64,000 nt of DNA. Source: an uncultured Paludibacter sp. GTDB lineage: Bacteria; Bacteroidota; Bacteroidia; Bacteroidales; Paludibacteraceae. The notes under the pieces were generated by a model. That model saw nothing but the letters and a program-made list of their open reading frames with translations. It had not been told where the DNA came from and did no database searches. Of the stretch, positions 8,832-62,297 are shown in pieces (within the stretch, counting starts at the first letter, position 1; the number at the start of each line of letters is the position of its first letter). The translations under genes were made by a program, and so were the position numbers. The stretch covers positions 21,305-85,304 of the forward strand of contig CAXXUM010000002.1 of assembly GCA_963664445.2 (NCBI GenBank). Direction: 5' to 3'.

Positions 8832-10395
8832 ATGAAAAAAAAGAGTCTATTATTAGTTGGCTTATTGTCAATGGTCTTGTTTGTTGGTGCTCAAACGGCT
8901 GATCAGAAAGTTGCCGTTGGTTTGTACGTCGGAAAAAATGAATACAAAGGAGATTTAGGAAACGCAATCTTTAATTATTCTCAAGTACCGTATGTTTTTG
9001 GTGGTCTGTCTGTCGCTACTTACATTTCTCCTTCTTTCGATTTAAGTCTTCAAGCTAACTCAGGTGATTATGGGTTTTTCCGCAATAATCTGGCTAACGG
9101 TAGTCTTAGTAGTCAGGGTAATCTTAGTGGAAGACTGTTTGGAACAAAGTCTGACGCGACTTTGTCTTTGCACTACAAGTTTAATAATGGCTACTTCTTA
9201 AGTAAAGATGCTAAGCTTTCTCCATTTCTAGAAGCCGGCTTTGGTTTAGCCTGGTATGGAGTTAAAGACCAAGGTGGCGTCTCTAACGCAACAAGAATGA
9301 ATACTACAGGAACTGATTTTATTGTGCCACTGGGTGCAGGTTTGAAATATCAGTTTACTAAGAGTTTTGCGTTGCAATATAAATTCGTTTATAATATCAC
9401 CAATCAAGATAAACGTGATTTCATTATTAAAAATGAAAATAATGAAGCGTTTGTTGAACATTCACTTGGTGTAATCTTCTCTTTTGGATCACCTAAAGAT
9501 TCAGACCACGATGGTGTGTCTGATAAATTGGATAAATGTCCTGATACCCCAAAAGGTGTAGCTGTTGATGCATTGGGCTGCCCAATCGATACTGATGGTG
9601 ATGGTGTAGCTGATTATTTGGATAAATGTCCTGATACTCCTGCCGGTGCAAAAGTTGATGCAATGGGTTGTCCTGTTGATACCGGACGGTGACGGTGTTG
9701 CTGACTATTTAGATAAATGTCCTTCTACTCCTGCTGGTGTAAAAGTTGATGCAAAGGGTTGCCCAATCGATTCAGATGGTGATGGCGTTGCTGATTACCT
9801 TGATAAATGTCCGGGTACTGCTAAAGGAATAAAAGTTGATGCAAAGGGTTGTCCACTAGATTCAGATGGTGATGGTGTTGCTGATAATTTAGATAAATGT
9901 CCTTCTACTCCAGCTGGTGTAAAAGTAGATGCAAACGGTTGCCCACTTGATAAAGACGGTGATGGTGTTGCTGATTATTTAGATAAATGTCCTGATGTAG
10001 CCGGTATAGCTGCAAATAAAGGATGTCCTGAAGTGAAAGCAGAAACAAAGAAAATCTTTGCTCAGGCTTTGCAAGGTATTCAATTTGAATCAGGAAAGAA
10101 TGTTATTAAGAAATCTTCTTATTCTATCCTTGATAAAGTTGTGAAGGTAATGAAAGAAAATCCTTCTTACAATTTGGAAATCAACGGACATACCGACAGT
10201 CAAGGTGCTGCCGCAACAAATCTTGAATTGTCTCAAAAACGTTCGGATGCAGTTCAGGCTTATTTGACTAAAGGTGGTATTGAAGCTTCAAGACTTACTG
10301 CAAAAGGATTTGGTGAAACTATGCCGGTTGCAGATAATGCAACTGCTGCTGGAAAAGCTAAAAACAGAAGAGTAGAGTTTAAAGTAAACTTCTAA
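8832..10395 (+). pseudogene. OmpA-family outer-membrane protein with thrombospondin type-3 (DxDxDGxxDxxD) repeats, split by a +1-nt frameshift
   Basis: ORF 8832..9692 has the signal peptide, barrel and first TSP3 repeats. ORF 9646..10395 has more TSP3 repeats and the OmpA C-terminal domain (NGHTDSQG, NRRVEF). An extra G at 9684/9685 inside a repeat unit shifts the frame. Confidence 0.8.
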
Positions 10396-15797: not shown

Positions 15798-15941
15798 CTA
15801 AATGATACCGGGTGCCTGTTTACGTTTTTGAACATTTATTTATATCTATTGTTTTATAAGTTGAATTCCTGTTTGCCCATACAGCCTAACTATTAGATGT
15901 TTGGCCTGGAAGATAGAAACTATAATATCAACTTAAAAGCA

Positions 15942-17408
15942 ATGAATATGAAAAAAAAATTACTTAGTTTTATACTGGTTTTTTGTACAGTAATATTTGT
16001 CTCTGCTCAGGATGCGGTCTCGAAAGTGCCTGTACAAGGTGAAGTGATTCCCAATACGCATTGGTCTGTTTCTCTAAAAGCCGGAGGGAGTTATTTCCGA
16101 ACCGGGGGCATGCAGTATAATTATGCCCGTCCTTTTTTTACCAGAAGCCGACTCGATTTTACAAGTGTGGTAGGTGGTACTGTTGAGTACACCTTTACAC
16201 CGGTCTTCGGACTCGGTCTCGATTTGACCTATACCGGATATAGCCGGTGGAATGATCTGAACGAAGACAGAGTCAGAGACAATTATTTAAACGGTAACAC
16301 CAAGGATGTTGCCTTGTTCGGATCGTTTAATCTTTCCAACATTATTACTCCCAAAAGAACCGGTTTTTGGGAAAAGCTCAGCCTCTATGCCAATCTGGGT
16401 ACTGGAATCGCCTTTTACAAGTATGATGTTTCAGGACATCTTGCCCATCCGAGTTCTTTTTTGGCTCTCGGAGGGTTGAATCTGGAGTACAATATCAGTA
16501 AATCGTTTGCTATCGGAGGAGAAGTGCAGTACCGCTACTATGCCAAAGATGATATGGGGTATTATCCCAATTATCAGCCTACTGGCTTCTGCGATGCAGC
16601 TCTTGTCACGCTGAATGTGCGATATAAAATCAATGCTACCGGTGCGAAGAAGCACGTGCGAAATATTAATGCACTCGAATATGTTCCTCTGGATGCTGAT
16701 AACGATGGAATAAGCGACTTAAAGGATAAATGCCCCGATACTCCTGCAGGAGTGAAGGTCGATTCGGTGGGTTGTCCGGTTGACTCGGATGGCGATGGTG
16801 TGGCCGATTATCTGGATAAGTGTCTGGATACTCCTGCCGGCGTAAGCGTCGATTCAGTGGGTTGTCCTGTCGATACCGATGGTGACGGAGTAGCCGATTA
16901 TCTCGACAAATGCCCTGCAACACCTGCAGGCGTTAATGTAAATGTGCAGGGTTGTCCGATTGATACGGATGGTGACGGTATTCCCGATTACCTCGACAAA
17001 TGTCCGACAGTGGCAGGAGTAGTAGCTAATCATGGTTGTCCCGAAGAAGTGGTTGCTTTACCACCATTCCCAACAATAATGGGAGTTTCGAACTTTAAAA
17101 TCGGATCGGCAACGATTAAACCGGTTTTTGTTCCAATTCTGAACGGTCTGGTTGATTATTTAAAAGCAAATACAAATGCAGTGGTCGATTTACAGGGCAA
17201 TACCGATAGTACCGGTAGCGATGATCTGAATCAACGATTATCCGTTAAGCGTGCCAAATCATGTGCCGGCTATTTGGTGAAGAAAGGTGTACCTGAAAAT
17301 CAAATAACGACTCAGGGATTCGGTGAGAAAAAACCGATTGCCACCAATGCCACTGTTGCAGGCAGAGATAAGAACAGACGTTGTGACTTTGTTATCAGTC
17401 GTAAATAA
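15942..17408 (+). CDS. OmpA-family outer-membrane protein with thrombospondin type-3 repeats (intact paralog of 8832..10395)
   Basis: Signal peptide from MNMKKKLL, an N-terminal barrel, four or more [15 protein letters not shown]-type repeats and an OmpA C-domain (NTDSTG...NRRCDF). The start at ATG 15942 was chosen because of the signal peptide. Confidence 0.85.
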   Translation: MNMKKKLLSFILVFCTVIFVSAQDAVSKVPVQGEVIPNTHWSVSLKAGGSYFRTGGMQYNYARPFFTRSRLDFTSVVGGTVEYTFTPVFGLGLDLTYTGYSRWNDLNEDRVRDNYLNGNTKDVALFGSFNLSNIITPKRTGFWEKLSLYANLGTGIAFYKYDVSGHLAHPSSFLALGGLNLEYNISKSFAIGGEVQYRYYAKDDMGYYPNYQPTGFCDAALVTLNVRYKINATGAKKHVRNINALEYVPLDADNDGISDLKDKCPDTPAGVKVDSVGCPVDSDGDGVADYLDKCLDTPAGVSVDSVGCPVDTDGDGVADYLDKCPATPAGVNVNVQGCPIDTDGDGIPDYLDKCPTVAGVVANHGCPEEVVALPPFPTIMGVSNFKIGSATIKPVFVPILNGLVDYLKANTNAVVDLQGNTDSTGSDDLNQRLSVKRAKSCAGYLVKKGVPENQITTQGFGEKKPIATNATVAGRDKNRRCDFVISRK

Positions 17409-17409
17409 T

Positions 17410-17669
17410 TTACTAACCTGAATTCGGGATAAGTTATGTTTCAAATAGTTGGTTTTCAACTTTCATTGCCGTCACTTTTAAGTGACGGTAATGAATTTTT
17501 ATTTCCGGGTCGGCTTTAGCCAAAATGCATAGCTGAAATGTTTGGCTAAAGCCAGCTATTTATTATTATTCTTTACCGCCCTTTAAAAAGGACGGCAATG
17601 AATAGCTTTGACAATCAGCTTATTTGAAAATGTAACAACCATTTTCTTATCCCGAACTCAGGTTACTAA
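17410..17669 (+). repeat. About 260-nt degenerate palindrome directly after the OmpA/TSP3 stop codon
   Basis: Outer arms 17410-17433 and 17646-17669 match at 22 of 24 positions. Inner hairpins lie at 17462-17495 and 17511-17553. Segment 17571-17602 is a degenerate inverted copy of 17462-17495. Confidence 0.7.
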
Positions 17670-17670
17670 G

Positions 17671-17725
17671 TATTCACACAAAGAAGAGGATGTCCGTATT
17701 GGACATCCTCTTCTTTGTGTGAATA
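17671..17725 (+). terminator. Perfect 25-bp stem / 5-nt loop hairpin
   Basis: TATTCACACAAAGAAGAGGATGTCC gtatt GGACATCCTCTTCTTTGTGTGAATA, followed by CATTTTAT. Confidence 0.55.
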
Positions 17726-17736
17726 CATTTTATAAC

Positions 17737-17990
17737 TATCTGTTTTGTCACCTAAGTGTAATGGTTCGGTATCGGTCGACCTCGTCTGGTGAACCGAAAA
17801 ACAAGTGAAGTTGGCGGTTAAAAATCGTCCTGTTTGAGTCCCGACGTATTTCGTCGGGGCGAGTTTGGACGATTTGAGCCAACGAGCGTAAGTTTTTCGA
17901 GTGAGGCAGGCGGAGTCTTGACTTTTTTTGCTTCCTTTTTTGCGTCAAGGCAAAAAAGGAAGTGGGGTTTTAGGGGCAAAGCCCCTGATT
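17737..17990 (+). repeat. Structured repeat family, copy A (candidate ncRNA / RNA-structured mobile element)
   Basis: Aligns with copies at 20929-21190, 21588-21808 and 61624-61836 (reverse). Nested stems and a pseudoknot-capable 3' part; see findings. Confidence 0.8.
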
Positions 17991-18053
17991 AACAAAAGTG
18001 AATACAACAACAGCAATATACTAAATAATCATGTAATGCTAGTTTCTATTCAT

Positions 18054-18335: not shown

Positions 18336-18425
18336 ACGTGTGATTTTTTTAGGTGAATGATTAGGCCGTAAAAATACAAAAGATATTTGATAAAACAACT
18401 TAGTGTCACTCTGCCAATAACAATA

Positions 18426-18507
18426 AATTCACAATTCACAATTCATAATTCATAATCGTTGATGGGGAGTTCAATAATTATGAATTATGAATTACAAATT
18501 ATGAATT
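18426..18507 (-). terminator. 31-bp AT-rich hairpin (AATTCATAAT-type) one nt after the stop of 18509..18880
   Basis: Arms are 18426-18456 and 18477-18507. All four non-Watson-Crick positions become G:U pairs only on the minus-strand transcript. Confidence 0.6.
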
Positions 18508-20824: not shown

Positions 20825-20928
20825 ATGCTTGTTTTTTTTATAGGTAAATAAAGTGAATGTATGTGTTGGTAAGTTTGATAAAGTGATTGTCCGAATCTAA
20901 TGTTGTACTTTTTATCTGTTCTATGTGA

Positions 20929-21190
20929 ATATCTGTTTTGTTACTTGATTGCTTTTACAATCGTTCGGGTATCGATTGACCTCGTCCGCTGAACCGAAAA
21001 ATGGAGTGAAGTAGGCGTAGAAAACTTTTCTGTTTGAGTCCCGACGTATTCCGTCGGGGCGAGTTAAAAAGTTTTCAGCCTACAAGCGACTAATTTTTCG
21101 AGTGAAGCGGGTGGAGTCTTGAACTTTTTTGCTTCGTTTTTTGGTTCAAGCCAAAAAATGAAGTGGGGTTTTAGGGGCAACGCCCCTGAT
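20929..21190 (+). repeat. Structured repeat family, copy B (most divergent, carries the compensatory changes)
   Basis: Same architecture as copy A, with both sides of several stems changed (for example CGAAAAAT/ATTTTTCG and GTAGGC/GCCTAC). Confidence 0.8.
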
Positions 21191-21587
21191 TATTCGAATT
21201 GAATATGAAATAGCTAATACTCTTCCCAAATACTTATTTCTGCATAAATACGCTGTAAAAATACAAGATTAATTTCAATTTGGAACATGAAATTAAATTT
21301 ATTTGCATCAGGACGCAAATAAATTTGATAAAGGCTTATTTGTAAGGACTTAGAGCCGGTTTTGAATCGTTTTCTGTAGGTGCGTATAAGTAGCAAAATG
21401 CTTGATTCTTACTATTTATTTACATAAAATACTGCTGATATACTACGAAAAATGCAGGTGTACTTACAGATTGAAATCAATCCGATACGTACACCTGCAT
21501 CCAGTGGGATGAGGGGTGATTTGTAGGTCTAAGCAGTTCAGATAATATTATTGATCCAATCAAGACTCAGATTCTTATGCTAAGTCG

Positions 21588-21808
21588 TCGGTTTCAAATC
21601 GACCTCGTCTGGTGAACCGAAAAACAAGTGAAGTTGGCGGTTAAAAATCGTCCTGTTTGAGTTCCGACGTATTTCGTCGGAGCGAGTTTGGACGATTTCA
21701 GCCAACTGAGCGTAAGTTTTTCGAGTGAGGCAGGCGTAGTCTTGACTTTTTTGCTTACTTTTTGTGTTAAGACAAAAAGTAAGTTAGGGTTTGGGGCGGA
21801 AGCCCCGA
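21588..21808 (+). repeat. Structured repeat family, copy C
   Basis: Nearly identical to copy A in the 5' two thirds and to copy D in the 3' third. Confidence 0.8.
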
Positions 21809-21846
21809 CAGAATTGCCGCTTTGTGGCAAAAATACCTTTTCCTTC

Positions 21847-21874
21847 GCCTCAGCCTCAGCCTCAGCCTCAGCCT
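21847..21874. repeat. (GCCTCA)4.7 hexanucleotide microsatellite
   Basis: GCCTCAGCCTCAGCCTCAGCCTCAGCCT ends 4 nt before the stop codon (21879-21881) of the minus-strand DUF4249 gene. Confidence 0.9.
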
Positions 21875-21878
21875 TCTC

Positions 21879-22847
21879 CTATAACCTTATTATCTTCACT
21901 GTGCTCGAATAACTTCCAAACACACCCAATCCATTTTTTATGTTGCAATGAATCTGAACCGGCTCGGAGAATACATTATCCTCGTTGGCCACTGCCCGGG
22001 TGCGCAGGTAGAGATAATAATCTTTGCTGATTTGCTGAAGAGCAATGATAAGTTCTTGTTTAGTCTCTTTAGGTCGATTGTAGAATGTAATCACATTTTG
22101 ACTCAACTTAAACTTAAGTGTATATTCTTTTCCATTGATAATGTCATCCGAAAACACACAAAACGGATTACTGTCATCCTCAGTTTGTAGCGGATCGGAT
22201 GAGTAAGCTTCCGGATCAATATTGTCAGTAATATGTACGAATTCATAACCGCTTTCGCCTTCAAAAGTGGATTTTCTCACGACAGCCAATCTGTAATAAT
22301 TTTTTTCGCTGCCTTTATCCTTCATTTTTATTTTGAATTCACAATCATAGTTTCTACTTTTGCCAATGGTATCATAAACCTGAGTGTCATTGGAATTTAG
22401 CTTGGTATGATAGTCCAGGAGGTAACCGCCTGTTGACGAAGTCACAGTAGTATCTACCGATACTATTTCCGGTCGGGTAAGTACCTTATCCTGGCAGCTC
22501 ACGTCCGTTTTGTTAGGAACGGTTACAACCAGTTTTATTATTTCGCCAATCGTCGGGATGTAGGTGCCTGTGTAGTTTCCTTTATCGGTATGAATCATTT
22601 TTTCTTTAAACACATCATTCACATAGACCGATACGGTGGCATTTTCTATGCCGGTGATCGTGCTTTCCTCTTCCAGAAAGAACTTGCTTTCGGATACGTT
22701 GGCCGATACTACCGAGTCGGGCGATACAAAACTGTTGACCACCAATACGGATTTGGTCATTGTTCCTTTAAACTCCACATCTTTCTCGCAAGATGCGAAC
22801 AAAACGAGGCTTATTATCAGGCTTAAATATATTTTTACAGATTTCAT
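21879..22847 (-). CDS. DUF4249-like lipoprotein, partner of the upstream TonB-dependent receptor
   Basis: Lipobox LFASC. Paralogous to 25956..26945 (shared SCEK, FSEP.QI, G.G.FGSY.S). Lies 27 nt downstream of the receptor gene. Confidence 0.6.
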   Translation of the reverse strand: MKSVKIYLSLIISLVLFASCEKDVEFKGTMTKSVLVVNSFVSPDSVVSANVSESKFFLEEESTITGIENATVSVYVNDVFKEKMIHTDKGNYTGTYIPTIGEIIKLVVTVPNKTDVSCQDKVLTRPEIVSVDTTVTSSTGGYLLDYHTKLNSNDTQVYDTIGKSRNYDCEFKIKMKDKGSEKNYYRLAVVRKSTFEGESGYEFVHITDNIDPEAYSSDPLQTEDDSNPFCVFSDDIINGKEYTLKFKLSQNVITFYNRPKETKQELIIALQQISKDYYLYLRTRAVANEDNVFSEPVQIHCNIKNGLGVFGSYSSTVKIIRL

Positions 22848-22874
22848 TGTTGTATTTTTTTTAATGGAAAAGGA

Positions 22875-25376
22875 TTAAAATTTATAGCTATAACTTACTG
22901 ATGGTATGATAGGAAAAATAGAATACTGAGTCAGTTTTTTGGTTGTTTTGCTCGTATTTGTTGCCGGGTCGTAGGTGTATTTGTCGTTCTGCATCGTGAT
23001 GAAAGGGTTCTTCTGATTGTAGGCGTTGTACACGCTGATATTCCAGGTTCTGATACCATGTTTGCGTTGCTTGTGAAAGTTCATGCCAATGTCCAGACGA
23101 TGATAAGGCGCGTAGCGGTAATTGTTGCGCGATCCCACGTAGGGCAAATAGACATTGTATTGAGATGATGAAGAAGAGTAGCCATAACTGTATTCCGATG
23201 AAGTTTGATAATTGCCGGGCAGTGTTGTACCGGCAAAGTTCTGCAGTGCCAATGTCCCGCAGCTACCGGTGCTGTAGGTCCAGGTGGTAGCTATGTCGAA
23301 TTTTTCGGAGAACTTATGCGACAGCACGATATTGATATTGTGTCTGCGGTCGTATTTTGCGGGGAAAGCTACTCCGTTGTTCAATTCTTCCCCCTCGCGG
23401 TCAAACAGTCGCTCTGTTTTCGACCAGGTATACCCAACCCAACCGGTAGTTTTTCCTACTGTTTTTTGTGCCAGAAATTCTATGCCATAAGCCCATCCGC
23501 GACCCATGCTCACCTTATCTTCCCATCCGGTACTCGACCCCAGAAAGCTTGCACCGTCTTTGTACTCAATCAGATTATCCATTGACTTGTAATATCCCTC
23601 TACCGACAGATCGAATAAATTCAGCAGGTTATAGAAAGCACCCAGCGAGTATTGACTGGACTTCATAGGGGCGATGCGTTTGGTAACCGGTACCCACAAG
23701 TCGGTAGGCAGGCTGATATTACTGTTCGAAAGCAAGTGAATATATTGACTCATGTAAGCATAGCCGGCTTTCAACGATAGTTTGTCGTTAAGCAAAATAC
23801 GTGCACCCAGCCGGGGTTGTAATGAATTGTAAAATTGGTTTTGCACAATAAAATTGGAGTAATGTAGTCCGGCATTTAGTTTAAATATCCGGTTGATACT
23901 GATATTATCTTCGGCATATATCATCGTTTCGTGCGCACTTACATTTTTATCGCCAACGGTAGTATCATTACGTTCGGTGCTACTGTCTTCTATCGTTTTA
24001 GACTTTGCCACCAACACACCGGGACGAAAAGTGTGGAAGGTGTAGTTGGCTCCGAATTTTATATCATGATTGGAATTAGGGGTGTAGTCAAAATCTACCT
24101 TTCCCGAATAGTCAACAATACCCGATTTATATCTGACACTTGTCGTTTCTTTCGAGTAGTTTGCCGGCGAAGTGGTACTCCATTCGTAATCCGTGCCAAT
24201 ACCCATGTCGAAACGATAACGGGTAAAGGCTGCTGTGGTATTCATAAACAGCTTATTGTTTATCAGATGATTCCAACGCAAGGCACTGATGATATTTCCC
24301 CATTTCCAGTCCACTTTGTCAATATCTGTTCTTTTATAGGTGTTGGTTGAGCCGGAATTATAATTATCAGAGCCACTATTGTAAGTGTACTGATCATTTA
24401 CATTAATCACATCGTCTCCCATATATGTGCTCAGAAATAGCTTGTCTCTGTCTGAGATGCGATGAGATATTTTAGCGTTCAAATCATAAAAATAATATCC
24501 TCCGGTGGTTTTATCCGATGTGCTTTTAGAATTGGCCATTGCCATAAAGGGTTTTGCCAACAAATCGGCATAGGTTCTGCGGGCAGATATATTGAAGGTG
24601 GTTTTATCGCTGAAAAGTGGTCCTTCAAGGTTGATCTTTGAGGATATAAGTCCAATGGTAAAGTTTCCATGTAGTTTCTTGTTATTACCATCCTTCATTT
24701 GTATGTCCACTACCGACGAAAGTCTCCCTCCAAACCTTGCCGGGAAACTGCCCTTGTAAAGGGTTACATTTTTAATAGCATCGGCATTGAAAACCGAGAA
24801 GAAACCAAACAGGTGATTCACATTGTACACCGGAACGCCATCGAGCAATAGCAGGTTCTCATCCGGTCCGCCACCACGTACGTGAAATCCTGCTGATCCT
24901 TCTGTTCCTGCTTTAACACCGGGCAACAACTGCAATGCTTTCAGTACATCTGTTTCGCCAAACAGGGCAGGAATCGTTTTTATCTGTGTTATAGGTATGT
25001 CTATAGCACTCATTTGTGAGCCCTTTACACCCAGTTCCTTGCGGTTAGCTATAACCACTACTTCTTTCAGTTCAGTGGCTTCTTGTAGCTGAATGTTTAT
25101 AACCGTGTCTTTCGATAGTTTGAATACGCGCTGCTCACCACGATACCCAACGTAAGAGTAGGAGAGAGACACCTCGCTCTTAGGCAGCGTAAGTGAGTAA
25201 AAACCGTATGCATTGCTTACCGTTCCTTTGCCCGATTTTGCTTCGAATACCGAAGAACTAATAAGTGTTTCACTACTTTTAGCATCGCTGATATAGCCGC
25301 TTACTGTATAGCTTTGCGCCTGACCAACCACTGTAACAAACAGAAAAATGTAACATAATAGAAAGTTTCTTTTCAT
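22875..25376 (-). CDS. TonB-dependent receptor with N-terminal CarboxypepD_reg-like domain
   Basis: Signal peptide, YTVSGYISDAKSSETLI (carboxypeptidase-regulatory-like), a plug region (LLLLDGVPVYNVNH) and a barrel ending in the aromatic SYSYKF. Confidence 0.85.
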   Translation of the reverse strand: MKRNFLLCYIFLFVTVVGQAQSYTVSGYISDAKSSETLISSSVFEAKSGKGTVSNAYGFYSLTLPKSEVSLSYSYVGYRGEQRVFKLSKDTVINIQLQEATELKEVVVIANRKELGVKGSQMSAIDIPITQIKTIPALFGETDVLKALQLLPGVKAGTEGSAGFHVRGGGPDENLLLLDGVPVYNVNHLFGFFSVFNADAIKNVTLYKGSFPARFGGRLSSVVDIQMKDGNNKKLHGNFTIGLISSKINLEGPLFSDKTTFNISARRTYADLLAKPFMAMANSKSTSDKTTGGYYFYDLNAKISHRISDRDKLFLSTYMGDDVINVNDQYTYNSGSDNYNSGSTNTYKRTDIDKVDWKWGNIISALRWNHLINNKLFMNTTAAFTRYRFDMGIGTDYEWSTTSPANYSKETTSVRYKSGIVDYSGKVDFDYTPNSNHDIKFGANYTFHTFRPGVLVAKSKTIEDSSTERNDTTVGDKNVSAHETMIYAEDNISINRIFKLNAGLHYSNFIVQNQFYNSLQPRLGARILLNDKLSLKAGYAYMSQYIHLLSNSNISLPTDLWVPVTKRIAPMKSSQYSLGAFYNLLNLFDLSVEGYYKSMDNLIEYKDGASFLGSSTGWEDKVSMGRGWAYGIEFLAQKTVGKTTGWVGYTWSKTERLFDREGEELNNGVAFPAKYDRRHNINIVLSHKFSEKFDIATTWTYSTGSCGTLALQNFAGTTLPGNYQTSSEYSYGYSSSSSQYNVYLPYVGSRNNYRYAPYHRLDIGMNFHKQRKHGIRTWNISVYNAYNQKNPFITMQNDKYTYDPATNTSKTTKKLTQYSIFPIIPSVSYSYKF

Positions 25377-25955: not shown

Positions 25956-26945
25956 TTACAAATTTACTTTTAGTACATTGCTTGCGTAACTTCCTACCAG
26001 ACCAATTCCTCCATTTATATTGTTGAATATCTGGATCGGTTCAGAGAAGAGCTGATTAGCTGTTTTCTGATCAGATCGGGTTTTTAAAAACAAATAGAAG
26101 TTATTGCAAACCGACTGCAAATCAATCTCTACTGTCTTCTTTGGTAACGGTCTTTGATATTCGGGTAGGTAGATACTTGCTGTGTCGTTGATGGTAAACG
26201 AAAGCGGATATGTTTTTCCATTGATAAGATCGTCGGTGAAAACATGAAATTGATTTTTGGTTTCATTGATAGCCGGAATGCCGGGTAATAAATCTTTCGT
26301 GTTGCCGGAAACGATGTCATCCAGTGTATAATCATAGTTCACCTTTTTTTGACCGTTGAAAGTGCTTGTTTGGTTTACTACCAGGCGGTAATAGTTTTTC
26401 ATGTTTGCGGCATCTGTAAAAGTAAGGATGTACCGAATGGTTCTGAACCTGTATTTACCCACTACTATCGTTTCTGTCTTCGATAATCCATTATCAACGG
26501 TGTTTACAGTTTCAATGATGGGTTTTGCTCCTGTCCAGGTAACGGTAGAGTCAAGTTTCAGAATATTCGCTTGAGGATAAATAGTTGTTTCGCCGCTGAT
26601 TTCTTCTTTTTCAGGAACCTTCACCACTAATTTTACGATATCTCCAACCGCCGGTTTAGTGCTGGAAATGTATTTCCCGTTTGTAGTATATTGCATTGTT
26701 TCTTTCAAAGTGCCATTGCAATAGATGGATACTTCGGCATTTTCCACTGCTTTGAAAAGATAATCGTTGTTTAGAAAAAACTGACTTTCCGACACATTTG
26801 CCACGATGGTGGAGTCAGGTGTGATAAAACTATTGAGTACAATTTGCGATTCGGTAGATTGTCCATCAAAGTCGATTTCTTTTTCACAAGATGTAAAAAT
26901 TGAAATGCTCAGCAAAACAAACCATATGATATGTAGTGTTTTCAT
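25956..26945 (-). CDS. DUF4249-like lipoprotein (second copy)
   Basis: Lipobox IFTSC. Same architecture and C-terminal FSEPIQIFNNINGGIGLVGSYAS block as 21879..22847. Confidence 0.6.
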   Translation of the reverse strand: MKTLHIIWFVLLSISIFTSCEKEIDFDGQSTESQIVLNSFITPDSTIVANVSESQFFLNNDYLFKAVENAEVSIYCNGTLKETMQYTTNGKYISSTKPAVGDIVKLVVKVPEKEEISGETTIYPQANILKLDSTVTWTGAKPIIETVNTVDNGLSKTETIVVGKYRFRTIRYILTFTDAANMKNYYRLVVNQTSTFNGQKKVNYDYTLDDIVSGNTKDLLPGIPAINETKNQFHVFTDDLINGKTYPLSFTINDTASIYLPEYQRPLPKKTVEIDLQSVCNNFYLFLKTRSDQKTANQLFSEPIQIFNNINGGIGLVGSYASNVLKVNL

Positions 26946-26956
26946 ATTCCAATTTT

Positions 26957-29431
26957 TTAAAATTTATAAGTATAACTTACTGACGGAATAATCGGGAAAA
27001 TAGAAGTCTGTATAAGCGTATTCTTTTTTGTGTAAACTTTTGTCGATTCGTTGTAGGTGGAATTAGATTTTACAGTGACTAAGAAAGGATTCATTTGATT
27101 GTATACATTGTAAATGCTTATATTCCAAGTTCTGATGCCATGTTTCCGCTTCTTGTTGAAGTTGATACTCACATCCAGTCGGTGATAAGGTTCGTAACGA
27201 TAATTGTTTCGTGAACTGATATAGGGTATTGAATTCGTAACATCTACCGAAGTGGCATCACTGGGAACGGACGTTGTCGGACTGGTTCCCGGTATGTCGG
27301 TGGCAAGGTAATTTTGCATGGATAATGTACCTGCGCTCCCCGAACTGTAAACCCATGTTGCCGAGACATCAATCTTTTCGCTGAATTTATGTGAAACCAC
27401 TATGCTCAGGTCGTGTCTTCTGTCGTATTTCGTTGGAAACGTTTTTCCGCTGTTCAATACTTCACCGGGTCTGTCGAAAAGACGTTCGGATTTTGCCCAG
27501 GTGTATCCAATCCAACCGGTGGTTTTACCCACTGATTTTTGCGCCAGAAACTCAACTCCATACGCCCAACCACGCCCAACACTTACTTTGTCTTCCCAAC
27601 CGGTGCTCGATCCGAAAAATGATGCTCCATCTTTATATTCAATCAGATTATCCATTGACTTGTAGTATCCTTCTACCGACAATTCAATCAGATGATTCAA
27701 ATTATAGAAAGTACCAATAGTCACTTGCCGCGATTTCATTGGTTCAATTCTTTTGGTAACCGGCACCCATAAATCGGTAGGCAACGAAACATTATTGTTT
27801 GATAATAAGTGGATATACTGGCTCATGGAAGCATATCCGGCTTTTAATGATAGTTTTTCATTCAGCAAATAGCGTATTCCCAAACGCGGTTGCACTGAGT
27901 TGTAAAAATGATTTTGTACCAAAAACGAGGAATAATGTACGCCAATATTTGCTTTAATGGCATGACTGATACTTATGTTATCTTCTACATAGGCTATGGC
28001 TTCGTGCGAAACTATATTATGATCACCAATCACAGTATCAGAAGTGCCGGAAGTATTGCTTTCCATTTCGGCAACCGTTACTCCGGGTCTGAAGCGGTGA
28101 AACGTGTAGTTGGTGCCAAATTTAATATCATTGTTTGCGTTCAGAGAATAATCAAAATCTATTTTTGCCGAGATATCTTCAATGCCCGAATCGTAGTCTA
28201 ATGTTGTGTTTTTAAATGTTTCTTTTGCAGGGGAGTATCTAACGGTTTGGTTTTCATTTCCAACGGCTAAGTCGAAACTATAGTGCGTATAGGAGCCGGT
28301 TGCATTCATAAAAAGCTTGTTGGAAATAATATGATTCCAACGCAATGCACTTATAACATTTCCCCAGTTCCAATCCATCTTTAACCAGTTTGTTTCATAC
28401 CCGTTTACACCACCACTAGCGTTTGTGTATTTTACTTCACTTTGTTTGATATTTGTATATATCACATCATTGCCCACATAGGCGCTTAAATAAATGCGAT
28501 CTTTGTCCGAGAACTTGTGCGTTATCTTTGCATTCACATCGTAAAAATAATACCCGGCTCTGGTCTTCTTCAGGCTCTCCTCACCAATGGCCGACTTTAA
28601 GAACGGTTGTGCCAGCAGGTCGGCATAGGTGCGACGGGCTGAGACATTGAACGTAGTGTTTTCACTTCCTAACGGACCTTCAAGATTCATTTTAGCCGAA
28701 ATTAATCCGAGTGAGAAGCTGCCATGTAATTTTTTATTGTCGCCATCTTTCATTCTTATATCTACCACCGATGAAAGTCTTCCTCCGAATCGTGCCGGGA
28801 AACTGCCTTTGTACAATGTCACGTTTTTAATGGCGTCCGCGTTGAATATGGAGAAAAACCCAAACATGTGATTTACGTTATAAACGGGTACTCCGTCAAG
28901 CAACAACAGGTTTTCGTCGGCACCACCACCGCGAATATACAAACCGGCCGAACCTTCGACACCAGCCTTAACACCAGGCAACAATTGTAATGCTTTAATC
29001 ACGTCTTTTTCACCAAAAAGCGACGGCACTGTTTTTATCAAACTGATAGGAACATCGATAGTGCTCATTTGAGAGCCTTGCACTCCTATATTTTTTTGAT
29101 TGCCAATTACAACCAGTTCTTTCAGTTCAACAGATTCATTTATACGGACATTGATAATTGTATCTTTCGTAAGATCAAATGATTGATGATTTAATGTGTA
29201 ACCGGTAAAAAAATAGCTTAGATTCACTACGCCCTTAGGGATAGTCAGTGAATAAAAACCATACGCATTACTTAAACTTCCTTTTTTTGAATTTGCGTCA
29301 TAAATCGACGCTCCTATCAATGTTTCCCCACTTTTAGCATCTGTAATGTGTCCACTAATGGTAACACTTTGAGCATGAGTGAACAAAGAAAAAAATGTAA
29401 ACACTATGAATGTGAGGATGAATTTCGTCAT
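26957..29431 (-). CDS. TonB-dependent receptor with CarboxypepD_reg-like domain (second copy)
   Basis: Long blocks are identical to 22875..25376, for example LLLLDGVPVYNVNH.FGFFS.FNADAIKNVTLYKGSFPARFGGRLSSVVDI. It ends in SYTYKF. Confidence 0.85.
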   Translation of the reverse strand: MTKFILTFIVFTFFSLFTHAQSVTISGHITDAKSGETLIGASIYDANSKKGSLSNAYGFYSLTIPKGVVNLSYFFTGYTLNHQSFDLTKDTIINVRINESVELKELVVIGNQKNIGVQGSQMSTIDVPISLIKTVPSLFGEKDVIKALQLLPGVKAGVEGSAGLYIRGGGADENLLLLDGVPVYNVNHMFGFFSIFNADAIKNVTLYKGSFPARFGGRLSSVVDIRMKDGDNKKLHGSFSLGLISAKMNLEGPLGSENTTFNVSARRTYADLLAQPFLKSAIGEESLKKTRAGYYFYDVNAKITHKFSDKDRIYLSAYVGNDVIYTNIKQSEVKYTNASGGVNGYETNWLKMDWNWGNVISALRWNHIISNKLFMNATGSYTHYSFDLAVGNENQTVRYSPAKETFKNTTLDYDSGIEDISAKIDFDYSLNANNDIKFGTNYTFHRFRPGVTVAEMESNTSGTSDTVIGDHNIVSHEAIAYVEDNISISHAIKANIGVHYSSFLVQNHFYNSVQPRLGIRYLLNEKLSLKAGYASMSQYIHLLSNNNVSLPTDLWVPVTKRIEPMKSRQVTIGTFYNLNHLIELSVEGYYKSMDNLIEYKDGASFFGSSTGWEDKVSVGRGWAYGVEFLAQKSVGKTTGWIGYTWAKSERLFDRPGEVLNSGKTFPTKYDRRHDLSIVVSHKFSEKIDVSATWVYSSGSAGTLSMQNYLATDIPGTSPTTSVPSDATSVDVTNSIPYISSRNNYRYEPYHRLDVSINFNKKRKHGIRTWNISIYNVYNQMNPFLVTVKSNSTYNESTKVYTKKNTLIQTSIFPIIPSVSYTYKF

Positions 29432-34106: not shown

Positions 34107-34115
34107 AGATAGATT

Positions 34116-34190
34116 TAATTCATAATTTGCAATGCATAATTCAGAATAAGAATAATTTTAATTATGAATTATGCATTTTGAATTATACAT
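34116..34190 (-). terminator. AATTCATAAT-type AT-rich hairpin overlapping the stop codon of the exonuclease gene
   Basis: AATTCATAATTTGCAATGCATAATTC ... AATTATGAATTATGCATTTTGAATTAT form imperfect inverted arms. Confidence 0.45.
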
Positions 34191-38293: not shown

Positions 38294-38319
38294 TATAAAA
38301 TCCTTTCGAATAACTAACC

Positions 38320-38357
38320 AAACCCCCTTGTCACTTTCTAGTGGCGAGGGGGTTTTT
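38320..38357 (+). terminator. Terminator after the GH20 gene
   Basis: AACCCCCTTGTCACT / AGTGGCGAGGGGGTT (with G:U pairs on the plus strand), followed by TTTCGTTT. Confidence 0.65.
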
Positions 38358-39346: not shown

Positions 39347-39427
39347 CAATAAACTATAAAATAACCTCCAATCCGGCTGAATTTCTATAAAGATGTTCAG
39401 TCGTTTTTTTATTAGTAAAATTCTACC

Positions 39428-39465
39428 AAAAACCCCTTGTCACTCGAGAGCGACAAGGGGTTTGG
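39428..39465 (+). terminator. Hairpin after the lipoprotein gene
   Basis: AAACCCCTTGTC / GACAAGGGGTTT. The T-run is weak. Confidence 0.5.
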
Positions 39466-39525
39466 CTTATATATAGTATCCACAGGGTTGCGCCTGCGGG
39501 AAGATAGTTCTTCTTTAATTCATAA

Positions 39526-39586
39526 TTATCAATTCACAATTCATAATTGAAAATGCATTATGAATTATACATTATGAATTATGCAT
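39526..39586 (-). terminator. AATTCATAAT-type AT-rich hairpin just downstream of groEL
   Basis: AATTCATAATTATCAATTCACAATTCATAATT ... GCATTATGAATTATACATTATGAATTATGCATT form imperfect inverted arms. Confidence 0.45.
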
Positions 39587-52614: not shown

Positions 52615-52696
52615 GCGGCTGTGGCGTAATTGGTAGCCGCGCCAGACTTAGGATCTGGTGCCGAGAGGCGTGGGGGTTCGAGTCCCTTCAGCCGCA
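52615..52696 (+). tRNA. tRNA-Leu (anticodon TAG)
   Basis: Acceptor stem GCGGCTG/CAGCCGC, anticodon stem CCAGA/TCTGG with loop CTTAGGA, a long variable arm (TGCCGAGAGGCGT) and T-loop TTCGAGT. A TATCTTTG box lies 20 nt upstream and a hairpin with a T-run lies downstream. Confidence 0.85.
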
Positions 52697-61551: not shown

Positions 61552-61623
61552 TGTAATAGATTGTGGTGGATTGAACTCACTTTATAGTGACCCGTAGTGC
61601 TTTAAAAAAGTCATTTTGTTTTA

Positions 61624-61836
61624 TAGGGGCTTCCGCCCCAAACCCTGACTTACTTTTTGTCTTAACACAAAAAGTAAGCAAAAAAGTCAAGACTACGCCC
61701 GCTTCACTCGAAAAACTTACGCTCAGTTGGCTAAAACCGTCCAAACTCGCTCCTTCGTCGCTCAGACAGGACAGTTTCAAACGCCAACTTCACTTGTTTT
61801 TCGGTTCACCGGACGAGGTCAGTCGCTGCCAAACCG
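61624..61836 (-). repeat. Structured repeat family, copy D (reverse orientation, apical hairpin shortened)
   Basis: The reverse complement aligns with copies A-C from GACCTCGTCCGG to the GGGGCGGAAGCCCC hairpin. Confidence 0.8.
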
Positions 61837-61898
61837 TATCCAGTTTAATAACTCTTGTATTTCTATTGAAGATATCTATAAATGTACTACAGTTTATA

Positions 61899-62297
61899 TT
61901 ACTTCTTTTCCTTTGACCAAAAATATACGCTTTCAATAGCCAGCATAACACCAATCCCCATCGTGTAGGCAATTATATCCGTCCACAGAAAGCCAAAGCC
62001 CAATACTAAACCTCCTAAACGGGTGTTTCTGATAGCATCAATCCAAGGGGCGTGATAGAGTTGACTTATTTCAATGAGGTAGCAAAATGACAAGCTAAGT
62101 AATGTAATTAGCGACGGTTTCCGGTCTTTTAAAAGTAGTGCTGCAAAAAGATAGATCATTACCGCCCACAGTGCATCACCGAGGTAGGTGTTGATATATT
62201 CGGGAAGATAGCCGGCATATTTTCTCGACGAAAGTCCCAATACCATAACTATAGCTACGGAAATAAGATAGACGATTCGATTGCGTGCCGGTTTCAC
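61899..62297 (-). CDS. DUF2809 family membrane protein
   Basis: 132 aa with four TM helices. The N-terminal pattern R..Y......V.......R........YLGD.LWA is as I recall for DUF2809. Confidence 0.55.
   Translation of the reverse strand: MKPARNRIVYLISVAIVMVLGLSSRKYAGYLPEYINTYLGDALWAVMIYLFAALLLKDRKPSLITLLSLSFCYLIEISQLYHAPWIDAIRNTRLGGLVLGFGFLWTDIIAYTMGIGVMLAIESVYFWSKEKK

Follow-up and report, generated by a model that had tools for sequence, protein, structure and literature searches.

Bacterial MITEs such as the Correia elements of Neisseria and the families of Porphyromonas gingivalis and Coxiella burnetii are small, non-coding, multi-copy intergenic elements that have terminal inverted repeats (TIRs), duplicate their target sites and differ in insertion from strain to strain, and some of them are transcribed and yield small RNAs (PMC4596501, PMC5896051, PMC10969869). 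Another class of intergenic repeats, the enterobacterial ERIC and RU-1, consists of long imperfect hairpins, some variants of which have extra internal modules at fixed sites, and for which compensatory changes that suggest constraint at the RNA level are reported (PMC2759123, PMC2229807, PMC3184786). The Paludibacter repeats described here share the size, non-coding nature, ends and distribution of bacterial MITEs and resemble ERIC and RU-1 in their intergenic imperfect hairpin and in their additional hairpin modules. They were analysed starting from one contiguous stretch of 64,000 nucleotides (hereafter the window).

Four copies of the repeat (A to D) are present in the window, each recognised by a 24-nt core signature, GACCTCGTCNGNTGAACCGAAAAA, which occurs at 17778 (+), 20978 (+), 21601 (+) and 61820 (-), compared with zero expected occurrences. 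Both a repeat finder and an nhmmer profile returned the identical set of four copies and no additional one, confirming the places that had been proposed in an earlier note on this DNA. The core common to all four copies is ~215 nt in length. The ends had been missed in that note, as the copies reach further on their flanks and at least copy D terminates in TIRs and a target-site duplication. Moreover, the view that the family has no TIRs and is not a classical TIR MITE had to be abandoned in light of the TIRs, the 7–10-bp duplications and the empty site of copy D described below; the TIRs had been overlooked because only the core was delimited.

With its 306 bp (61587–61892, minus strand), copy D represents a complete element of the D-type and is composed of a left arm, the structured core (61625–61824, minus strand; nhmmer E = 7e-67, a row in two of the copy alignments) and a right arm. 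On the element strand, its 5' TIR CTGTAGTACATTTATAG (61876–61892, minus strand) matches the D-type TIR consensus ACCCGTAGTGCATTTGAT, and its 3' TIR reads ...TTAAAGCACTACGGGTCAC (61587–61605, minus strand). The insertion is surrounded by a direct repeat of TTTATA, whose first copy is located at 61581–61586 and whose second copy, at 61893–61898, lies immediately next to the DUF2809 stop codon (61899–61901). The same duplication is alternatively readable as 7 bp with one mismatch. Three relatives with EF-Ts proteins 99% identical to that of the window (L129, L130 and L137) possess an empty site, which reads ...GAACTCACTTTATA followed directly by TTACTTC... and contains TTTATA only once. The tsf-DUF2809 spacer is 100 nt long in these strains, and the window has an additional 312 bp at 61587–61898, including one TTTATA copy. 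Copy D and its empty counterparts represent a textbook filled-versus-empty pair.

The remaining copies in the window lack a clean pair of ends, with only the left end recognised in copies A and B and no end in copy C, whereas copy D has both. Copy A (17728–17997, plus strand) consists of a degenerate L-type left end, ATAACTATCTGTTTTGTCACCT, and the core, without a recognisable right TIR, and its similarity to copy B and to the L029 copy spans positions -61 to +228, counted from the beginning of the core. A 9-bp direct repeat, GTGAATACA, found on both sides of copy A (17719–17727 and 17998–18006) is a possible target duplication. The first GTGAATACA copy additionally contributes to the right arm of a hairpin at 17664–17732. 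Copy B (20926–21207, plus strand) starts with the L-type left end TGAATATCTGTTTTGTTACTT (20926–20946), and its core (20974–21185) is followed by a left-TIR-like sequence, TGATTATTCGAATTGAATATG, in direct orientation. Copy C (21585–21815, plus strand) is a bare D-type core with missing or truncated arms, and its similarity to other copies is confined to positions -13 to +213.

Among close strains, the occupancy of the spacers that harbor copies A, B, C and D is variable. L142 and L145, in which AlaDH is 99% and 100% identical to that of the window, have neither copy B nor copy C. Copy B is missing from the orthologous spacers of L004, L142, L145 and L148, each of which contains another sequence. 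At the site orthologous to copy C, L142 and L145 have no copy and L004 has a different element. At the same time, L004 and L142 possess a copy directly downstream of AlaDH, a place that is unoccupied in the window, and these two orthologous copies are two inserted hairpin modules apart. A different structured element is located ~20 nt from the D site in LaCa_MAG_3 and in OW818663.1, and at the copy A locus there is a break of synteny with the relatives compared. A clean empty site was obtained for copy D only, since the A, B and C spacers are rearranged or otherwise occupied in every relative fetched.

Further copies were collected by genome and metagenome scans and a profile search. In a one-genome-per-species scan, the core signature was found in 30 DNA stretches (31 exact matches), all of which belong to Paludibacter or to unclassified Bacteroidales MAGs, and a metagenome scan yielded at least 120 loci. 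Profile search and de-duplication resulted in 91 unique full-length copies; about one-third of the profile hits were interrupted or truncated.

Similarity among the copies extends 50–90 nt upstream and 20–60 nt downstream of the core in the form of subfamily-specific arms. In the D-type, the arms terminate with the inverted repeats ACCCGTAGTGCATTTGAT / ATCAAATGCACTACGGGT, which are located at fixed positions of -69 and +22 from the core. When the D-type flanks are compared at a fixed offset (0 or +1), at least six out of seven bases match in 10 out of 17 copies, whereas no copy matches to this extent at other offsets; within an 8-nt window at the best offset, at least seven out of eight bases match in 13 out of 18 copies versus 13% of mismatched flank pairs. 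The same core is carried by G-type ends (consensus ..TAGTACATGACAAAAA), for which perfect 8-bp duplications were identified in five out of eight copies (e.g., TATAATCC and GAATTTTC), and by L-type ends (consensus TATGA(A/T)TATCCG....ACCT), which have duplications of 8–10 bp, such as AAAAAGTATA in L001 and TTCAATTA in L189. Besides copy D, the TIR-to-TIR spans range from 285 to 460 bp. Overall, one core is shared by at least three different inverted-repeat chassis (D, G and L) with 7–10-bp target duplications, in genomes as well as metagenomes of Paludibacter and Bacteroidales. The subtype of the core and the type of the ends are not strictly linked, as exemplified by D-like cores within G-type chassis, and L-type ends also enclose quite different structured interiors (e.g., L012:4082-4279). 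The element is small (under ~600 bp, 306 bp for copy D) and non-coding, and TIRs, target-site duplications and presence/absence polymorphism were all found. These repeats are a MITE family, neither a free-standing RNA gene nor an orphaned guide RNA.

The interior of this MITE is highly structured. The MFE of copy A is -104.7 kcal/mol on the given strand (z = -8.9) and -78.5 kcal/mol on the opposite strand, and all helix coordinates previously proposed for this copy proved correct in a base-by-base check against the sequence. The rod domain (17778–17917, plus strand) comprises a long-range stem, an A5/U5 stem and a bulged hairpin that has three parts and an apex of variable sequence, as seen in the MFE fold and by covariation of helices 1–4 in a set of 21 copies and of helices 1–7 in a set of 76 copies. 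The verified positions are 17778–17788 / 17907–17917 for the long-range stem, 17795–17802 / 17892–17899 for the inner stem, and, within the bulged hairpin, GTTGGC 17810–17815 / GCCAAC 17878–17883, 17822–17830 / 17867–17875 and the apical helix CCCGACG 17840–17846 / CGTCGGG 17852–17858. The pseudoknot domain (17917–17962, plus strand) consists of CTTGAC (17917–17922), a U7 linker and hairpin 2 (17931–17941 / 17952–17962), which has a U6/A6 tract and exposes GTCAAG (17944–17949) in its loop. This domain was assigned on the basis of covariation of pseudoknot pairs, coupling between the lengths of the linker and the A-tract, and compensatory changes in the outer stem of hairpin 2. Finally, a 3' G+C hairpin (AGGGGC / GCCCCT, 17972–17986, plus strand) is supported by the fold and by covariation; its closing C:G pairs are replaced by U:A in other copies (GGGGC..GCCCC versus GGGGT..ACCCC).

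The fold was tested by explicit pair counting, first in 21 copies and then in 76 distinct copies. With the proposed structure and a 5-bp pseudoknot, 97% of cells in the 21 copies are paired and 21 pairs show two-sided changes; the covariation score is 0.235 versus 0.112 after shuffling (reached in 0/500 shuffles) and 0.04–0.06 with the partners slid. In the 76 copies, two-sided changes occur at 28 pairs (18.4 +/- 2.0 in shuffles, 0/500) and 78 further pair types were counted (65.7 +/- 2.6 in shuffles, 0/500). The multi-helix, pseudoknot-capable fold with two-sided compensatory changes suggested by the earlier note is supported in both sets, and this support persists in the larger set, where the counts lie above all 500 shuffles. 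Single pairs covary as well, for instance, C:G 59 / U:A 13, A:U 40 / G:C 24 / G:U 9, and C:G 61 / U:A 12. In the pseudoknot, there is a strongly covarying junction pair (C:G 51 / A:U 16 / U:A 5) and one G:C/G:U pair, and the outer stem of hairpin 2 has compensatory changes at five out of six positions. The conservation of the ~215-nt core fold and its maintenance by compensatory change are thereby strongly supported.

Extra small hairpin modules are found at loop or junction positions only, namely the apex, the GGTGAACC^GAAAAAC loop, the pseudoknot 5' strand, the hairpin-2 loop and the terminal loop. In every interrupted or truncated copy that was inspected, a Y-shaped module of ~70 nt takes the place of the pseudoknot 5' strand, which means that the pseudoknot cannot be essential in all copies. 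The sequence of this module is a polypyrimidine mirror repeat adjoining a purine/pyrimidine hairpin.

The proposed polarity of the fold is borne out by two observations. The sense strand folds better than its complement in 21 out of 21 copies, by 11–30 kcal/mol (mean 21.6), and the helices of these copies contain 107 G:U cells versus 8 A:C cells. In our reading, a putative sense-strand transcript is the selected form. The copies are always intergenic and non-coding, and no reading frame is kept across subfamilies, in agreement with the earlier report of no conserved ORF. Rare variants, present in at most two of the 76 copies, occur at 0.52 per site in stems versus 0.68 in unpaired positions, and rare stem variants retain pairing 31% of the time, with a rough neutral estimate of 25–30%; differences between subfamilies are compensatory. 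The combination of near-neutral pair breaking in young variants and compensatory differences between subfamilies points to selection on propagating lineages. Selection thus seems to act on propagating (master) lineages and not on each inserted copy, and the pattern of rare variants argues against the idea that every copy is a host regulatory RNA.

The U-rich linker between TCTTGA and hairpin 2 is either 7 or 8 nt long, and its length changes together with that of the U/A tract within hairpin 2. The 7-nt linker is accompanied by an A5 tract in 12 out of 13 haplotypes and the 8-nt linker by an A6 tract in 17 out of 18, with both length states present in four loop backgrounds; linker length and U-run length are associated (Fisher test, p = 2e-4). 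This concerted change of the linker, U-run and A-run lengths lends support to the pseudoknot. It also hints at a putative U·A-U triplex formed by the linker and the A·U tract, with Watson-Crick pairs between the linker and the A-run as the alternative. U·A-U triples are known from telomerase-type pseudoknots (PMC7583470) and from ENE elements (PMC12501189).

A search of the whole window with Rfam 15 at the gathering score identified only a tRNA at 52615–52696, and the four copies analysed at E <= 1 to 10 matched only sub-threshold microRNA models on plain hairpins, with nothing relevant among them; the core is indeed not a named RNA family by these searches, as had been suspected. Rfam is expected to include the IscB-associated HEARO RNA. 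The immediate neighbors of the window copies are housekeeping genes. Among 78 ORFs flanking the copies at genome loci, the Pfam analysis revealed no recurrent transposase, reverse transcriptase, TnpB, IscB, Y1 or IS110 protein, the most frequent family being MFS with three members, and when the 604 ORFs of 200 aa or more in the full set of loci were clustered, no multi-copy protein recurred. The search for a parent IS combined TIR motifs in all loci, TIR pairs 120–6000 bp apart, ORF clustering and the literature on TIR strings. Neither a cognate transposase nor a full-length IS with matching ends was detected in the window, in the ~1.1 Mb of sequence surrounding the copies or among plasmid records, and a blastn search of the plasmid collection with the D-type left arm did not reveal a parent IS. 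Contig breaks at IS copies are common in metagenome assemblies, which bears on this result. Ends that start with AC and 7-bp duplications would fit a possible IS982-like affinity. For copy A, blastn found a single insignificant match of 48 nt in plasmids and none in phages. In viral contigs, the core signature had no match, and a 14-nt TIR pattern had 98 single matches that are attributable to chance and uninformative.

Several known types of repeats were also considered. REP/BIME sequences, which are RAYT-associated palindromes of 20–40 nt that are often clustered, were ruled out by the unit of ~300 bp with TIRs and duplications. Integron attC sites, which follow each cassette of a gene array in a single orientation and go with an integrase, were ruled out by the unrelated housekeeping neighbors in conserved synteny and by the occurrence of both orientations. 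FopS was rejected due to its different architecture.

Other explanations of the conserved fold can be weighed against these data. The copies could be paralogous, independently transcribed host sRNA genes in variable spacers, with the inverted repeats serving as an outer closing stem. A fold conserved with covariation and polarity in intergenic, multi-copy sequences would be expected of such genes, and multi-copy sRNA families do occur in Bacteroidales (PMC11697453); however, the inverted repeats are immediately flanked by target-site duplications, copy D has a clean empty counterpart, no TAnnTTTG (the promoter motif of Bacteroidetes) occurs at a fixed distance upstream of the copies, and the near-neutral breaking of pairs by rare variants implies that purifying selection on individual copies is not strong. 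Furthermore, FopS is built of a short 5' seed and a terminator and is reported by its authors to be deposited in Rfam (PMC11697453), whereas no Rfam family matched the core. We consider this explanation improbable; the novel ncRNA family envisaged by the earlier note is tenable only as the RNA cargo of a mobile element, with no fixed promoter found. The functional form could instead be a folded single-stranded DNA that acts as a priming or recombination signal in transposition or replication. The structure is conserved on one strand, with no detectable promoter, and its orientation is not significantly biased relative to co-directional neighboring genes (38 sense and 27 antisense, p = 0.21); moreover, G:T wobbles and T·A-T triplexes are possible in DNA, and propagation appears to be the level at which selection operates. 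On the other hand, TIRs with 7–10-bp duplications indicate transposition by a double-strand cut or nick, not of the IS200/IS605 or IS91 type. Single-strand transposons are known to show a marked strand bias, and no bias relative to the local GC skew was found for the copies (42 versus 33, p = 0.36), although this test is weak. A DNA role of this kind is thus also of low probability.

The fold might, alternatively, be unselected, with its helices being the inverted ends of nested small palindromic elements. Entire segments of helices have been exchanged among the subfamilies, and hairpin modules vary even between the L004 and L142 copies, as such nesting would predict, but neutral decay would produce equal numbers of G:T and A:C cells, in conflict with the excess given above, and many single pairs covary in an RNA-like manner, including the interleaved pseudoknot pair, which leaves this scenario disfavoured and very unlikely. 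In their size, multi-stem pseudoknot fold and dispersed distribution, the copies resemble omega-RNAs, and orphaned omega-RNA or reRNA scaffolds (IscB/TnpB), or bridge-RNA-like transposon-end remnants, were therefore considered. The guide scaffold of the TnpB/IscB type raised in the earlier note finds no support, with no recurrent TnpB, IscB, Y1 or IS110 genes among the 78 flanking ORFs, no recurrent protein cluster among the 604 ORFs, no Rfam match even at permissive E-values, and TIRs and duplications that are foreign to IS200/IS605 and IS110 elements; we regard it as highly improbable. Still less credible is a SINE-like element copied via RNA by a reverse transcriptase, which had also been proposed. 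Its A/T-rich targets, variable duplications of 7–10 bp and strand-specific fold would fit such an element, but TIRs are present, there is neither an A-tail nor a pattern of 5' truncation, and no reverse transcriptase is recurrent nearby. We know of no LINE-like partner in bacteria.

The whole of the data is probably best explained by a family of ~300-bp MITEs with a structured cargo that would function as an element-serving RNA. The non-autonomous element inserts into an AT-rich intergenic target and duplicates 7–10 bp of it and, since it encodes no protein, it would be mobilised in trans by a transposase encoded elsewhere. The cargo folds on one strand only and includes a rod-like hairpin of 140 nt, the U-rich linker, the A·U-tract hairpin with a loop-to-linker pseudoknot, and the G+C hairpin; a single cargo of this type is housed in the D, G and L chassis, which in turn also house other cargoes. 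As selection seems to operate on propagating lineages, the RNA would benefit the element and not the neighboring host genes, for example, by resisting decay through its structure and aiding mobilisation or persistence. A more specific version, in which the core is an RNA needed for the spread of the element in at least three chassis and its triplex pseudoknot either provides resistance to decay or acts on the transposase, is speculative and, in our estimate, rather unlikely. The main explanation is weakened by the failure to detect a cognate transposase, by the lack of both a fixed upstream TAnnTTTG promoter and a canonical terminator, by the replaced pseudoknot strand in the interrupted copies inspected and by the incomplete ends of copies A, B and C; in addition, an internal fold is not known to be required by MITEs of the DDE type.

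MITEs are commonly viewed as passive DNA defined by its ends, whereas in this family it is the fold that persists, even though single copies decay. Should the fold act as RNA, it would provide a tractable example of an ncRNA under selection on behalf of a bacterial DNA transposon. The more specific version, if true, would make the mobility or persistence of a DNA transposon dependent on an RNA fold, a situation with no known precedent among MITEs, and would possibly represent the first triple-helix stability element on a bacterial DNA transposon; a literature search revealed no bacterial MITE with such an element. In practical terms, comparative screens of Bacteroidales spacers will call these copies novel structured ncRNAs, and they should be classed as mobile-element cargo. 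The copies are also markers of recent insertion differences among closely related Paludibacter strains.

In comparison with known systems, the core is similar to omega-RNA, HEARO RNA and reRNA, which are structured RNAs of ~200 nt with pseudoknots that derive from transposon ends, but differs from them by having no associated nuclease gene and no Rfam match and by the presence of TIRs and duplications. ERIC is a single palindrome of ~127 bp, to which the core has no sequence relationship; instead, it combines a rod, a pseudoknot and a terminal hairpin in a strand-asymmetric fold, with TIRs and duplications outside this fold. Similar to FopS/GibS of Bacteroides, the element forms a multi-copy non-coding family in Bacteroidales spacers, whereas FopS has a short single-stranded seed, a terminator and canonical promoters, and shows no similarity to the core in sequence or architecture (PMC11697453). 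With ENE elements and telomerase RNA, the core shares a U-rich strand beside an A·U-tract helix in a pseudoknot and the location on a transposable element, a resemblance that is predicted from sequence in the present case; known ENEs clamp the poly(A) tail in eukaryotic or viral RNAs and in retrotransposons (PMC12501189). Typical MITE families have shared ends and a drifting interior, whereas the Paludibacter element has a conserved, covarying interior and at least three types of TIRs, with no parent IS found. The kind of element is therefore ordinary, and it is the structured cargo that makes the Paludibacter MITE unusual, with a conserved strand-specific interior that is common to at least three end types and bears signs of tertiary structure.

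In many copies of the MITE core, a Y-shaped module of about 70 nt is found in place of the 5' strand of the loop-to-linker pseudoknot. This module occupies the same position in each copy (L005:455-525, as well as L142, L022, L030 and L017, all fetched from related genomes or metagenomes), and the orthologous copies in L004 and L142 differ in it. It contains a polypyrimidine mirror repeat, CTCTCTTCC-TTTTT-CCCTCTCC, which together with the neighbouring GGAGAGGG forms a triplex-prone layout. Further highly structured MITE-like families were found in related genomes (L139/L140:2560-2880, L004:4750-5130 and L012:4082-4279). Among the relatives, a 'family-2' element (CTACAAATGGTTCG...) takes up the spacers that hold copies C (21585-21815, +) and D (61587-61892, -) in the window, and a 198-bp element from a related genome combines a different folded interior with L-type ends, one of at least three inverted-repeat end types carrying the MITE core.

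Directly 5' of copy A (17728-17997, +) and downstream of the OmpA-like gene, there is a hairpin with a perfect 27-bp stem (17664-17732). Among the loci fetched, its centre, AGAGGATGTCC..GGACATCCTCT, recurs at a single further independent one, L027:3947-3973, where it likewise lies directly 5' of a family-1 element, that is, a member of the MITE family under study; L187, which also matches, represents the locus of the window itself. This hairpin may be a site favoured for insertion, or it may belong to the element as an accessory part.

Copy C is located at the junction of a tandem duplication of a gene pair encoding a TonB-dependent receptor and a DUF4249 protein (21879-25376 and 25956-29431, ~70-73% DNA identity), which is present as a single pair in the close strain L145. 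The DUF4249 stop codon is directly followed by a short run of the hexamer (GCCTCA)n (21846-21875), which is different in the ortholog L004. Upstream of the gene for alanine dehydrogenase, the spacer contains two hairpins (21288-21332 and 21438-21510), which are kept in L004, L142 and L145, relatives without copies B (20926-21207, +) and C, and may represent a leader or regulatory structure.

Other repeats in the window include coding arrays with a 90-nt period (9498-10042 and 16692-16965), the latter corresponding to thrombospondin type-3 repeats of the OmpA-like gene (15897-17408); these arrays have no relation to the MITE finding. An AT-rich short repeat of the AATTCA(C/T)AATTCATAAT type occurs in three spacers (18417-18456, 34108-34147 and 39508-39561), and two similar G+C hairpins (AACCCCCTTGTCAC...GGGGGTT) located 1.1 kb apart (38314-38354 and 39423-39463) look like terminators.

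Finally, RteC-like genes adjoin some of the MITE copies (L006, L013, L230 and L262). Genes of this type are known to be associated with conjugative transposons, a possible route for the spread of the MITE between species.
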